A stretch of DNA of 64,000 nt from Escherichia coli (GTDB taxonomy: Bacteria > Pseudomonadota > Gammaproteobacteria > Enterobacterales > Enterobacteriaceae). A program made the position numbers. Location: the NCBI RefSeq assembly GCF_041886205.1, contig NZ_CP169029.1. The stretch is one strand, 5' to 3'. Shown here one piece after another: positions 31,001-37,000 of this stretch. Position 1 is the first letter of the stretch. Each line of letters starts with the position of its first letter.

Positions 31001-34000
31001 GTAGAGGATCACCGTTTCGTATTCCAGCCCCTTCACTTCCTGAACCGAAAAGACCAGCGGTGTACTGAACCAGCACCGTGCCTGTGCTTTCTGTTCCGGA
31101 TGCATCACAATAACCGCCACCCGATTCAAACGTGAGGTTTTGGTGTTCAGTTCCTGTTTTGTCTCTTCCCTGTCTTCCAGTAACATGACAGCGCCTTCCG
31201 TCTGACCACAGCTTCTGACGAAATGGTGGCTTTCCCGATCAATGGCACTGAACCGGGCCTGTCTGAGCCTCAACAGACGGTTAGCCAGTGCGGTGATATG
31301 GTGCCCGTTACGGTAATTTGCCTGCAGGATATTAATGGGTGCGTCGTTCCCCTGTTGCTGCCGGAAAAAGAGACTTTTGAGCGAACTCCATGAGAAAAAG
31401 CTGAGGTGTACAATCTGACTGGCATCACCACAAAGCAAAAACTGACCAGGATGACGTAACGTTTTCAGTACCAGTTGCAACTGAACAGGCGTCATATCCT
31501 GAACTTCATCGACGAAAATAGCATCGTAACGGGGCTCTGCCAGCGGCAGATACTGATGGCTGAGCAGATTACTGTCATACTGATTCGACTGTTTCAGCCA
31601 TACCGTATAACGTTCAAACAGGGCATAGACCGTCGGGCGGTCATCCATGCTGTAGAGCGACTGCCGTACCCCCAGCGACAGATACGCCTCCCGGGACAGC
31701 GGTCCGTTGCCGGAAGCGGCCGCACCAATCACGCCCCTGAACTCCTCATACAGGGTATGGGCAGATCCCAGTGCAGCGATGCTCCGGTTGCGGGGCAACC
31801 AGTCGCTGAACGCACTGAAGGTCACCTCCCGGCCTTCCGGAATACGCAGGGTTTCCAGGAATTCCGTCAGTGACAGAAAGTCAATATTCTGCACATCACT
31901 CCCTTCCCCCGACGCGTTATAAAGCGTTCGCGCTTTTTCCACCAGAAATGAGGACAGGCTGAGATACAGTATATCACCAGCAACCTGCTTCATTTTTTCC
32001 AGTACCAGCGCCGTCTTACCACTCCCCGCAGAGCCGACAATCACCAGCGGTAGCGGGTGTTCGTACAGCGCCTGCTGCTCATCATCAAAGGACAACATTT
32101 TATCCAGACGATGGAAACGCCCGTGAGACGGATTAATGTACGTCAGCGTTTCCGTCGCTATATCAACAGGCTCTGGTACAGGTTGTTGTTGTAAGCGGTC
32201 TTCATCAATCACCACGTTTTTGCGAAGAAAACGTGAAGTGTGATAGGCATGATTGCGAATATATTCCAGTACAAGGCAGACTGTTTCCCCCTAGTAGCGA
32301 TACAGCGAAAACAGTAACCGGGACCGGATACTGAGCCGGGCGCGATAAAGATTGGTGTCAATTTTACGAACATCAGCCTGAACGAAGTTATCGGCCTCAA
32401 TGGCCTGTGCAAATTTTTTATAGCCCGGGATCGCTTCCGGGTTCAGGGTATGGTAGAGACAGATTTTCATGGCTGTCAGTTCCTGTCGTGCAAAAAACGT
32501 ACTGATTCTACGAAGGAACGGCCCACGCAACAACCTTGTCCCCTTCCTGAATTGAATTCACGGTCAAAAAACGCACGCTGTTCAGTTATCGACACCGATA
32601 ACACAACCCCTGATTGTTGTGGATATAACCGGTAATATCAAAGATATCGCGGCTGTTTTTAAGGCAACGTATTGCTCTGGTGTATCACCCCGGGTAACCT
32701 GAAAACACCTTTCCACCCGGCATTATCCGCCCGGACTTATCACCCGCCAGGTCTGCTGCAGTAAATCCCCCCGTTGTGAACATGCTTCATCAACTGTGAC
32801 ACTGGCTCGCGGGTGACAAATACTCGTCTGGCTGAGCAGCAACAGGCATCGAATTGTTGCTCCTCCATGCTGTTCCCGCAACCAGCGTAACACCACCGGC
32901 GATGATGGACTGGTCGTGTGATTACGCTCAGTAATACGTTCATGCACCTGTCGATAAAAGGAAGTACAGAATGCATGAATCTGTTGCCCATTGATGTTTC
33001 CTTCTGCCGAATGGAGCGTGAAATGAAATGCCAGCAGACGCGGCCAGTGGTCCACCGCCTGCTGAACAAAACGCCGGATTTCCCCCGGCTCTGAAAGTAA
33101 GGCTTCGGTTATTTGCACTATTTTATCCTTGTGAATTTTGTTAAGCCGGTGCAGACACACGGAAAGCGAACATCAACACCGGCACGGTACAATACAAACA
33201 CCAGCGACTGGCGGGACGAAGGGAATGACGAATCAGTCAGGAAATGATGACAACCAGTTGGCTGACCAGAGGAGTTAGCAGAAAGATGAGCGGGAGTGTC
33301 GCCAGCATCGGGGACAGGGCTGATTTCCGCAATACCAGCGCCGGCATTGCAACACGTTTCATGCTGCTGCTCCTCGTGATTCCTCAATTCGTTGTTGCAT
33401 CCACTGCTCCACTTCACTTTTGTACCAGCGGCTGCTGCGCCCCAGTTTGATGGGTTTAGGAAAATGCCCTTCACTGATCAGCCTGTAAAACCATTTATCG
33501 GTCATGCCGGTGAAACTGGTGATGTAGTTCATGTCGATCAGGGGATCGTCGGCACGCAGCAATACGCTGTCGTGGCTTGTTGTGGTCAACATGGTCAGAA
33601 TGTCCTCAGTGAGATTTATTAAGAATGGGGTAATACGGGGAATGGGATGGCGTGCTGCTTTCAGCACTGCCAACCGGGATTGCCGACAAGGCAACGGGCT
33701 TCCGGATCGCACACTCCACGGCGATCGCGGGCGAAATCACTGAACGCCCAGATAAGGTCCTTAAACAGGGCTTCGCAGTCCGGTGACCGGCGATCCAGTA
33801 CCACATCCCGTGTTATCTGTTTCTGGTACGGTGCCGCTTCACCCGGTGACGCGAAGCCCAGTACGTTGCTCCAGGCATCCAGAATCAACCTGTCCAGTTC
33901 AGGGCCGTCGAAATACTCCTGTCTGACGCACAGCACCACGTGGTATTCCGGCTTTTCCGGATGACGGGTCAGGAGCCAGCAGAGATCACGTCCGGGGGTT

Positions 34001-37000
34001 GCATTCATCAGCGCACTGACGGTTTCGATAAAATCCATGCCTAACCAGGTATTTCTGTCACTGAAGATGTTGTCATGTTCCCCCGGCAGGCGAAGCAGGA
34101 TCCGCCGTACCCGGGAGCAGGACTGTTCACGCAGCGCACGGTTGAGAACACCGATGATTTTGTTCTGATAAGACGGCCAGAAGGGCGCCATGCTATAGTC
34201 GAAATAAGGAATACCATTCATAAGATATGTTCCGTTATGCGCAGCCCACAACGCGTCCTGCCCGTGGATACGCTGACGTGTTATGGCTTGCGGAATGAGA
34301 TTGATAGAATAAGTGAAGAACCGAAGCAGAACGGGAAGATCAGGTAACCGACAAGGGACAGAACACCGGATGCAGGTTCAGGGTGAATGATCTCCGTTGA
34401 CTTCAGTTCACATCATTAAGCAAGGCGGTAAGGTTTTACCGACGGAGTGTTTCCAGGAGAGGAAGCAGATAAAAATACCGTTGCATGACTTCAGGACGAC
34501 TTTTTCAGAAAACGAGCTAAGGGCGTCAACCACGCCCTTACCGTGGCATACGCTCATGCACCGGATGCCGTTTTACAGGATTTACCTGCCATCCAGTAGA
34601 CGCCCTGGCCCACGACTGCAACCATAATTACGTTGCCCGGAACCGTCATGCAGCTTCGTTTCATATTTCACTAGATAACTGGCTCTGTTCCGGGCTTTCT
34701 GCAGCGCTTCCACATCACCACGCTTGATCCAGAGAACAGCGGCTTCACCCGGCTTTTTGTCTGAAGCCTTCCTGGTTTCAGAACATCCACCCGACAAAGG
34801 CGTATCATCGGAAGAAGGGCGAGCATCAGATGATGCCGGTTTACGGAAAGGCGTCCGCCTGGAAAAATGAACCAGTCCATTACCCTGCCAAGGTTCAAGA
34901 TGCAGAGCGCTACACCATGCCAGCTTGATCAGTGTCGCCAGCGAAGAAGGAACAGTGAAATCCCCTGGCGAGCACCAGGTATCTTTGTTGAGCAGTAATA
35001 TCACGTGATAATGTTTCCTGCCTTTTTCCTTGCCAAACTCCCGACACCAGAAATAATGCAGGGTGGTTGCACGCACACGCTTGTTGGCACATCTTTTTTT
35101 CCGCTGGTAAGCCTGAATTTTGGCTTTCAGGGATGCAAAAAAACGAGAAATCACCGCTGAATCCGGATCGGGATCCATGATGGTGACAGGCATATACTCA
35201 GGGAAACGTAAATCCACCCGGATTAACGAGACGGCACGGTGCTGCGCCAGAGCACTGTCGAGAAGGCTGTCAAAACGGGATAACCAGTAAGCATTGTGTA
35301 TTGGTTGATTCATGATGAGAGATCTCCGTTGATTTGGATTGACTTCACATCATTAATCACCGCAGTAAAACTTTACGGCATCCTGTCATTAAGCAATGCT
35401 ACAACTCTCTGATTAAGAGAGATTGAAACGGAATAAACCATCCCGTAACGAAAAGAGAATCCTGCACGTAAGGTAAAAACACGCAGCAACAGCATGAATG
35501 GATTTGAAAACAATATGGATGACGAAAAAAGTCAAAAGGGAAACGGATCAACAGAACGTGCAAACAAAACATCAAAAACGCAATCAGAACGCTTTCTGGC
35601 GCTGTGAATCAACAACAACACCAAAACCTACAGCTTAACCACACAACTCAATCACAGAGCCGAATAGCGCGCTTAAAACCTGTTTACAGATAACCCCACC
35701 CCAAGAACAAAAACCACTAACATCAGAATCGATTTTCTTATCCAGAAAATGTTACGTTTCACTACACACCATAAAAACGATTAACCATCGATAACGTAAA
35801 CCTTATCTGAATCAAAACACCAAAACCGTTCATCACACTTTCGCAATGCAAGAAGAAACCTCATGACAAAAAGAATGACCTTACACGGAAAAGAAAAACG
35901 TCAGGAATCGTTAATGCCTCAATCTGATTGTTATCAAAAAATTCAGAAAGTCGTTTAACAGAATCGTCGTAAGCACATCGAAAAGAACGTCAGATTACTT
36001 CAGGAAAGCTCGGGTTGATTTAGCGTAAAGATACTTTTCTCATGCTAACGTCGAAACTCGAAATCTCAGGAAAGGTTAAACGTAACATCAGTAAAATCGA
36101 ATAGCAGATTGATTGCTGAAGCAGAAAGGTTTTACAGCAGCATTAAACTGATTTAGTTAACGTAAAGATTTACTAAACTGGATGTGTATATAGTATCATA
36201 CCGACATTCTCAACATCTTCAGACTTCCATACATACTGGGTGTTAATTTTTCACTTTTACAGCCAGCATGGAGTTTTCTGTCCTAAAAACAGAGCAGATT
36301 TACTCTGGAATTATTTTCTCTACCTCAGAAAACTTGCTCTCAATAATCTGCTATGGCTTCGTAGTTTCTGTTGTTCTTTTCATAAAAGTTATAAGTCATT
36401 GTCATAATCATACGATAATCACTTTATGTTAGTTTTTACTGTCATACGCTACTGACTTTTCAGTCATTGCCAGAAAGGGGGGCTTTTTACTTCCATTTCA
36501 CCACTCAACAAATGCAAAACTTGTCCAGTAAAGCGGACCACCTCTTGCTCACAAGCAACGAATCGTCTCCAGGAACAGCCCTCAAATATTGCAGAAACAA
36601 AAACAACAAAACCCTCATTATCACTGATGTTCGGAAATTTCCCTGAACAAAAAAAACGAAAACAAAATGAGACGCATTATCATTAATGTAGTCAAAAAGA
36701 CGTTATTGTGGCTTTCAGTTAAATGGTACTATTTCTCATAAATCCACTTAACTTTTTTTACTGATTCATCCCAGAGAACCACTTTATCAGTAAAAAATGA
36801 ATTATATAGATTGACGAGTTTTTCTGTTTCAGTTATTCCCAATGTATTATGTATAAGTTGTAGATATGCTTTTATCCAGATTTCTTTACCCTCCTTCCAC
36901 TTATCTATAAAACTTTCCAGCTTACTTAATCGTTGATTTATAAAAAACGAATCAATATCATGAAAAAGCTCAACAAGAAAACAGCACGAGACAATCTCAA

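Follow-up and report, generated by a model that had tools for sequence, protein, structure and literature searches.

What does it signify when several genes of the Gp2/YfjJ type are gathered around a single alpA gene? Such a locus lies on the minus strand, at 32400-35700, of a 64,000-nucleotide (nt) stretch of Escherichia coli contig NZ_CP169029.1 (assembly GCF_041886205.1); this whole stretch is referred to here as the window. A preliminary description had read the locus as three Gp2/YfjJ-like paralogs, two of them tandem duplicates with near-identical upstream leaders, placed on either side of an alpA gene that had lost its usual first position. We find a different history. The locus contains one canonical YagK/YfjJ gene (P1) and two anciently diverged paralogs (P2 and P3), which enclose an AlpA regulator gene and a mini zinc-ribbon gene, and this layout is a conserved architecture of its own. 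Taken jointly with the roles proposed below for P1, P2, P3, AlpA and the repeated leader, we think it probable, with some reservation, that E. coli has a family of genomic islands, of the CP4-57 / P4-integrase type, whose conserved core module is this region.

Gene order of the module

The three minus-strand open reading frames (ORFs) first proposed all exist, with two sets of boundaries displaced: P2 most likely starts at 34221 and not at 34251, and the third gene occupies 32582-33118 and not 32723-33160. Read along the minus strand, the segment 32400-35700 carries P1, a terminator-like hairpin, P2, an AlpA-family gene, an ORF of 41 amino acids (aa) overlapping the alpA stop, and P3. In its fuller form the order is P1, terminator, the second copy of the leader, P2, alpA, zinc-ribbon gene, P3 and variable cargo. 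A chromosomal island of E. coli GXU-23-25-310 is 99.9% identical to this segment, and RefSeq lists there, in the same order, an 'inovirus Gp2 family protein', a 'hypothetical protein', a 'helix-turn-helix transcriptional regulator', a 41-aa 'hypothetical protein', a 'hypothetical protein' pseudogene with an internal stop and a helicase pseudogene.

At least 470 E. coli genomes carry at least 80% of the 3.3 kb module query, and the order of the four annotated genes was the same in all eight E. coli loci inspected, beside differing cargo. The statement that the usual alpA-first order has been rearranged here is misleading: K-12 CP4-57 does run alpA, yfjI, yfjJ, yet the order seen in the window is the one conserved in these at least 470 genomes. 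Because the P1-P2-alpA-P3 layout recurs in E. coli loci, and a similar one without the P2 gene on a Klebsiella plasmid, while the layout in K-12 is different and single-copy, it is a conserved architecture separate from that of K-12 and not a local rearrangement.

Sequence features of P1

P1 (34582-35313, minus strand) encodes a canonical YagK/YfjJ ('inovirus Gp2 family') protein of 243 aa, which matched Pfam PF11726 (YagK_YfjJ_C) with 119 bits and E = 2.7e-34, the curated cut-off being 25.8 bits. It also matched Pfam PF23343 (REP_ORF2-G2P) at 4.2e-9 and, weakly, four 'replication initiation protein' PHROGs over the HUH region. Both motifs expected of HUH/Rep proteins are present, the HUH motif as H101-Y-H103 and the YxxK motif as Y213-L-V-K216. 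In an alignment of 16 family members, residues H101, H103, Y213, K216 and K220 were invariant and the Tyr motif followed the pattern R-x-x-Y-L-x-K-x-x-T-K. As judged from this alignment, the motif pattern of P1 is that of HUH rolling-circle initiators. The ratio of non-synonymous to synonymous substitution rates (dN/dS), given here and below as a median over 7-8 loci, was 0.31 for P1.

At residues ~150-192 (window 34735-34865), after the HUH core and ahead of the Tyr motif, P1 has a low-complexity insert of about 45 aa, rich in Ser, Pro and Asp, which is not found in the orthologs from outside E. coli (Klebsiella, Providencia and Brenneria). Many database variants have frameshifts in this region, and a chance sub-threshold match to the Rfam family PhotoRC-I falls inside it. 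Directly after the P1 stop codon, a consensus scan located a terminator-like hairpin (34518-34540, minus strand; GGGCGT...ACGCCC) followed by a T-run, the two together spanning 34508-34540. Its stem is kept across loci and its loop varies, and we consider it a putative terminator.

Relationship of P2 and P3 to the YagK/YfjJ superfamily

P2 (33661-34221, minus strand) encodes a divergent YagK/YfjJ homolog of 186 aa annotated as 'hypothetical protein'. It most likely begins at the ATG at 34221 (MNGIPYF...), which is the start in RefSeq and in every homolog; the TTG at 34251 is not supported. The P2 family is nearly confined to E. coli, and P2 itself had no Pfam match even at E ≤ 10, no NCBIfam match and nothing usable in PHROG. 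Pairwise, P1 and P2 are about 20% identical and gave a BLASTP E-value of 0.039; K-12 YfjJ and P2 aligned over 185 aa with E = 1e-4. Deeper searches were more informative. When 1.84 billion representatives were searched exhaustively with HMMER, two full-length distant homologs of P2 came up, P0318 and P0323, at 29-33% identity, and P0318 matched the P2 profile (E = 1.6e-18) as well as YagK_YfjJ_C (1.4e-10, 41.8 bits, cut-off 25.8). When P0318 and P0323 were added, hhalign aligned the P1 family with the P2 family over 132 columns with 98.2% probability and E = 5.7e-14. This transitive evidence argues strongly that P2 is a member of the YagK/YfjJ superfamily lying outside the current PF11726 hidden Markov model (HMM).

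P3 (32582-33118, minus strand) is a paralog of Gp2 type and falls in the PF27752 / 'UCP030791' group. The intact protein of its relatives has 178 aa; in the window the gene is a pseudogene, an in-frame TAA at 32723-32725 replacing Gln132 (Gln in strain EC28); RefSeq marks it as a pseudogene in the 99.9% identical genome as well. P3 had no match in Pfam, PF11726 included, or in NCBIfam and nothing usable in PHROG, and intact P3 compared pairwise with K-12 YfjJ gave nothing significant. Its homologs carry a precomputed PF27752 tag, and some are named by NCBI 'inovirus Gp2 family protein' or 'UCP030791 family putative phage-derived protein'. By tblastn of P3 against plasmids, we found an 'inovirus-type Gp2 protein' of Klebsiella with 27% identity (E = 1e-5 database-wide, 2e-13 pairwise). 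Addition of this protein and of a K. aerogenes homolog raised the hhalign probability between the P1 and P3 families from 11% to 96.1% (E = 3.5e-9). Additionally, 11 of 13 P3-family members scored above all 200 shuffled controls with an HMM built from P1 and P2. A P3 alignment scan of genome contigs returned two close relatives only. The profile comparisons thus provide good support for placing P3 in the same superfamily as P1, thinner than that obtained for P2.

We conclude, on the strength of these profiles and intermediates, that P1, P2 and P3 belong to one superfamily. The earlier notion of three Gp2/YfjJ-like paralogs stands to this extent, although their homology is remote only: pairwise alignment of P1 with P2, and of intact P3 with K-12 YfjJ, fell short, and it is the deeper profile tests that link all three.

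The catalytic positions of P1 are altered in both relatives, neither of which has the HUH motif. At the HUH position P2 reads E-Y-H (C/F-Y-H in its distant homologs), and at the Tyr motif it reads A-F-S-D-F-A-R where P1 has R-A-S-Y-L-V-K, so that Asp replaces the catalytic Tyr; the P2-family pattern at this position, S-D-F/M-A-R-D-R, is kept even in the distant homologs. P3 has I-R-C at the HUH position (K-M-V and R-M-M in Klebsiella homologs) and no conserved Tyr motif.

Conservation of the repeated leader element

A non-coding element occurs twice in the module. Leader copy 1 (35309-35376, minus strand) is composed of a GTAA-N4-TTAC palindrome, the box TTAATGATGTGAA and the segment TCAACGGAGATC, which includes the Shine-Dalgarno (SD) sequence GGAG, and runs into the ATG of P1. 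Leader copy 2 (34377-34439, minus strand) shares the palindrome and the box as well as an SD-like segment, and reads CTG where copy 1 has ATG. The alignment of the two copies spans 68 columns, 49 of them identical, with a single gap of 5 nt, and its local score of 43 compared with maxima of 30 in 2000 shuffles and 29 among 2926 other stretches of the window. Exact copies of the 13-mer TTAATGATGTGAA and of the 12-mer TCAACGGAGATC were found in the window only at the two leaders. The shared upstream leader is therefore real, but it is about 72-78% identical rather than near-identical, and copy 2 does not abut P2, whose ATG lies 155 nt downstream, beyond a variable spacer (34222-34376, minus strand). 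Two further candidate copies were discarded: a version of the 13-mer with one mismatch at 57535, which lies in the core chromosome, where it overlaps the stop codon of one gene (DinG-like) and the start of another (YbiB-like), and was judged a chance match, and the P2-proximal upstream region, as 438 of 2000 shuffles scored as well.

Variable sites were counted across eight loci. Only 4 of 68 sites varied in leader 1 (35314-35381) and 11 of 63 in leader 2, compared with 80 of 155 in the spacer before P2 and 70 of 119 in the sequence upstream of leader 1; the proportion of variable third-codon positions was 22% in P1, 40% in P2 and 29% in alpA. By these counts the leader is under stronger constraint, as a nucleotide sequence, than the synonymous sites of the adjacent genes. 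Of 5426 complete E. coli genomes, 1872 carry leader 1, and none of the matches listed has an annotation there.

In the spacer, indels break all reading frames across the loci, and no conserved small ORF follows leader 2. Two upstream ORF candidates, a CTG-initiated frame of 13 codons and a hydrophobic frame of 36 aa, were rejected, being broken by 1-nt indels in loci L012 and L006 and by a TTA in L002. Locus L006, from an Enterobacteriaceae metagenome-assembled genome (CALYPF010000094.1), has a 3.3 kb, largely AT-rich insert (L006:1400-4850) precisely at the junction of the P1 terminator and leader 2; inside it lies a fourth gene of the YagK/YfjJ type (L006:4050-4616; Pfam 27.9 bits, H-A-H motif). 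The position of the insert suggests that this junction may be a hotspot for insertion or recombination.

The leader could act in the RNA, controlling translation as a hairpin of the 5' untranslated region (UTR) in which base-pairing of the AAUGAUG box with the region of the start codon masks the SD sequence, copy 2 having decayed or been repurposed. The minimum-free-energy fold of leader 1 does pair GAUU.AAUGAUG with CAUCAU.GAAUC across the SD sequence and the AUG. In copy 2, the complements AUCAUU and UUCAC follow the SD-like segment, which is kept though no start codon comes after it. However, the fold energies are no better than those of shuffled sequences, Rfam offers no match, and copy 2 has no conserved ORF that it might regulate directly, and we regard an RNA-level element as unlikely.

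Alternatively, the leader could be a DNA site of the HUH protein, serving either as its origin or nick site or as an operator at which Rep binding gives autoregulation; its duplication would have put a site on either side of P1. Such a site would suit a P1 that keeps all HUH and Tyr motifs, the small palindrome and the conservation at nucleotide level, and the L006 segment with another Gp2-like gene did enter precisely where the P1 terminator meets leader 2. The overlap of the leader with the SD sequence and start codon nevertheless fits expression control better, and a reading of the Klebsiella locus showed no obvious site of this sort. We consider this explanation decidedly unlikely.

Age of the duplication and retention of the paralogs

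If the locus had arisen by recent tandem duplication, P1, P2 and their leaders would be young duplicates, P3 a third copy, and alpA would have been caught between them by rearrangement. The leader copies are indeed significantly similar and lie ~932-937 bp apart, about one gene length, and all three proteins fall in one superfamily. The genes themselves tell otherwise. Protein identity between P1 and P2 is at the low level given above, with its BLASTP E-value of 0.039, and their coding DNA has no collinear similarity, the leader stretch of 63-68 nt being all that aligns. Two short direct repeats (D9 and D13) have a spacing like that of the leaders but lie off the register of the protein alignment and were treated as chance. 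Furthermore, each paralog has a separate family, P2-family homologs at 29-33% identity already have the altered motifs of P2, a P3-type gene is already distinct in Klebsiella, and the gene order is widely conserved. A recent duplication is thus very unlikely, and the leader does not demonstrate one: with proteins only ~20% identical and coding DNA lacking collinear similarity, any duplication must be ancient. A non-coding leader that is still ~75% identical cannot be an unselected relic of an event of that age, and must have been either held by selection or copied later. The two copies remain ~75% alike while the genes have diverged because both are constrained as nucleotide sequence.

Median dN/dS was 0.18 for P2 and 0.40 for intact copies of P3. 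Because purifying selection has acted on them despite the loss of the motifs, P2 and P3 look like retained paralogs without catalytic motifs rather than junk. That they are instead non-functional, unrelated ORFans or decaying relics whose profile matches are artefacts of thin alignments is highly improbable: although neither has a direct Pfam or NCBIfam match, P3 is a pseudogene in this window and many database entries are fragments or frameshift variants, the dN/dS values are low with intact ORFs in 7 loci, the homologs at 29-33% identity keep their full length, and HMMER, hhalign, BLASTP to YfjJ and tblastn to Klebsiella agree on one collinear alignment.

alpA, the downstream genes and the surroundings of the module

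The AlpA-family helix-turn-helix gene (33359-33592, minus strand; 77 aa) matched Phage_AlpA (PF05930) with 41.5 bits and E = 1.2e-10, above the cut-off of 21 bits, and the PHROG 'excisionase and transcriptional regulator'. With a median dN/dS of 0.06 it is the most conserved gene of the module. Overlapping its stop codon (ATGA) is the disrupted mini zinc-ribbon gene (33237-33362, minus strand), whose frame is shifted by the loss of 26 nt between ATGCCGG repeats; a remnant of the zinc-ribbon frame is found at 33275-33358, and RefSeq calls the frameshifted 41-aa product a 'hypothetical protein'. Five related loci have an intact or near-intact zinc-ribbon ORF of 35-38 aa (MKRVVMPVRWQCAKCRRWYCGNQPCPWCWR...), and a related peptide occurs in the Klebsiella locus. 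The neighbouring cargo gene, encoding a UvrD-like helicase with ankyrin repeats (29621-32470, minus strand), has an in-frame stop at codon 60. Since three consecutive genes are broken, by the zinc-ribbon frameshift, the P3 nonsense codon and the helicase stop, the part downstream of alpA is decaying in this strain.

On the 5' side of P1 lies an AT-rich gap of 1.4 kb (35400-36728), unannotated, with 33-41% GC, a strong AT skew and no notable ORF, and less conserved than the leader; a search for iterons there found no enrichment of ACGTAAA-type repeats. It is followed by a 376-aa gene without assigned family (36729-37859, minus strand; ~30-36% GC, no Pfam match), a 'hypothetical protein' conserved in related islands, and then by an island block comprising GTPase, DUF932, antirestriction, RadC and YeeU/CbtA genes. 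On the 3' side the module is followed by the helicase gene and a cdiBA system. The apparent right-hand end of the island is at 45400-45650, after a DUF4942 gene (44492-45337), beyond which core genes begin (ABC permease, MscS-type channel, RNA methyltransferase, TonB-dependent receptor, DinG-like and YbiB-like genes). No integrase was seen among the scanned ORFs of the window. The only ARAGORN tRNA call in the window, a tRNA-Ser GCT at 57864-57948 (minus strand), lies inside the ORF of a 762-aa DinG-like helicase (57544-59832) and is probably a false positive.

Comparison with known systems

P1 resembles K-12 YfjJ over its full length (30% identity, E = 1e-27), with the same HxH and YxxK motifs, and the surroundings of the module resemble those of YfjJ in CP4-57 and YagK in CP4-6, which belong to the same type of integrase/AlpA island with a GTPase, DUF932, antirestriction, RadC, YeeU/CbtA block. 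The comparison with the K-12 loci is otherwise one of differences: K-12 has one copy in each island, ordered alpA-yfjI-yfjJ in CP4-57 and intF...yagK in CP4-6, with genes in between, whereas the module has three diverged copies around alpA, two of them without catalytic motifs, and a 45-aa insert in P1.

A parallel outside E. coli was found on the Klebsiella pneumoniae IncF plasmid pRWS292.s3 (NZ_CP110526.1), which encodes Gp2, AlpA, two DUF7828/Zn_ribbon_11 proteins, an 'inovirus-type Gp2' protein and DUF2913. The order of Gp2, AlpA, zinc-ribbon gene(s) and P3-type gene is that of the module, its Gp2 being 42% identical to P1 and its P3-type protein 27% identical to P3. The locus differs in being plasmid-borne, in having no P2-type gene and in having full-size zinc-ribbon genes (138-139 aa) in place of a mini-ORF.

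Among HUH rolling-circle initiators, the filamentous-phage gpII type (PF23343) is approached by P1, through its match to this family and its weak matches to the replication-initiation PHROGs. P1 differs from these initiators in lacking a phage context, and P2 and P3 differ in lacking the motifs.

A similar pairing has been described in another genus. In the tmRNA-associated (transfer-messenger RNA) Pseudomonas islands I23, I44 and I55, which bear integrases and are rich in defence genes, the numbering puts a Gp2-like orf immediately ahead of alpA at one end, and the Gp2-like and alpA genes have been proposed as core functions of these islands (bioRxiv 10.1101/2024.08.29.610337). A single Gp2-like gene is reported there, and the likeness to the module is one of gene order as described.

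Discussion

The answer to the question raised by this locus is mostly an ordinary one, and the advance is incremental rather than surprising: a gene cluster that looked like a recent duplication disturbed around alpA has the marks of an established island module.

In CP4-57-type elements, proteins of the AlpA family are known to activate integrase or excision, an established view for which the preprint on the Pseudomonas islands can also be cited. In the core module as we picture it, AlpA would accordingly be the protein that switches on excision, P1 may be a nicking or replication-initiation enzyme of the excised island, and P2 and P3 may be its non-catalytic DNA-binding partners or regulators. 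The leader, of ~65 nt, could be a shared control site coupling the expression of P1 to that of the P2-alpA-P3 unit. The function of the module would then be the control of island replication or mobilisation.

Several observations weigh against this picture. No experiment or structure is known to link any YagK/YfjJ protein to nicking or replication, and neither a structural nor a PDB relative was detected. The place of P3 is the least secure: its Klebsiella homolog reached only 18.4 bits against YagK_YfjJ_C (0.0022), below the cut-off of 25.8; hhalign linked P2 directly to P3 with a probability of 51% only; and the P3 profiles are thin (Neff, the effective number of sequences, ~2). Concerning the leader, a search of Rfam 15 at the gathering threshold gave no match to it, the sole match with E < 1 in 32400-36800 being the chance PhotoRC-I match within the P1 coding sequence. 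A sigma-70 consensus scan found no promoter match in either copy, the predicted RNA folds of the two copies were not better than shuffles (z = -0.96 and -0.26), and there are only two leader sequence types, too few for covariation. No obvious leader copy was apparent on reading the sequence of the pRWS292.s3 locus.

A bolder version of the same core-module reading can be formulated, in which the leader is a cis element not described before, serving either as an operator/origin or as a switch in the 5' UTR, and is recognised by the three-paralog set; only P1 would be catalytic, and P2 and P3 would be pseudo-enzyme partners that time island replication or mobilisation together with AlpA. We hold this to be improbable in so specific a form.

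For annotation the consequences are more immediate. P2 is a widespread 'hypothetical protein' of E. coli (cluster P0001 alone has ~2600 member sequences), and its recognition as a probable catalytically degenerate YagK/YfjJ paralog improves its annotation; the P3 (PF27752) group benefits likewise from being recognised as YagK/YfjJ-related. The leader, found in a third of complete E. coli genomes and without annotation in all of the matches listed, offers a concrete handle on the regulation of the module. More generally, YagK/YfjJ ('Gp2-like') and AlpA genes recur as the core of integrase-type islands with defence and toxin cargo, and the module described here suggests that such islands may use one active HUH protein together with non-catalytic relatives.

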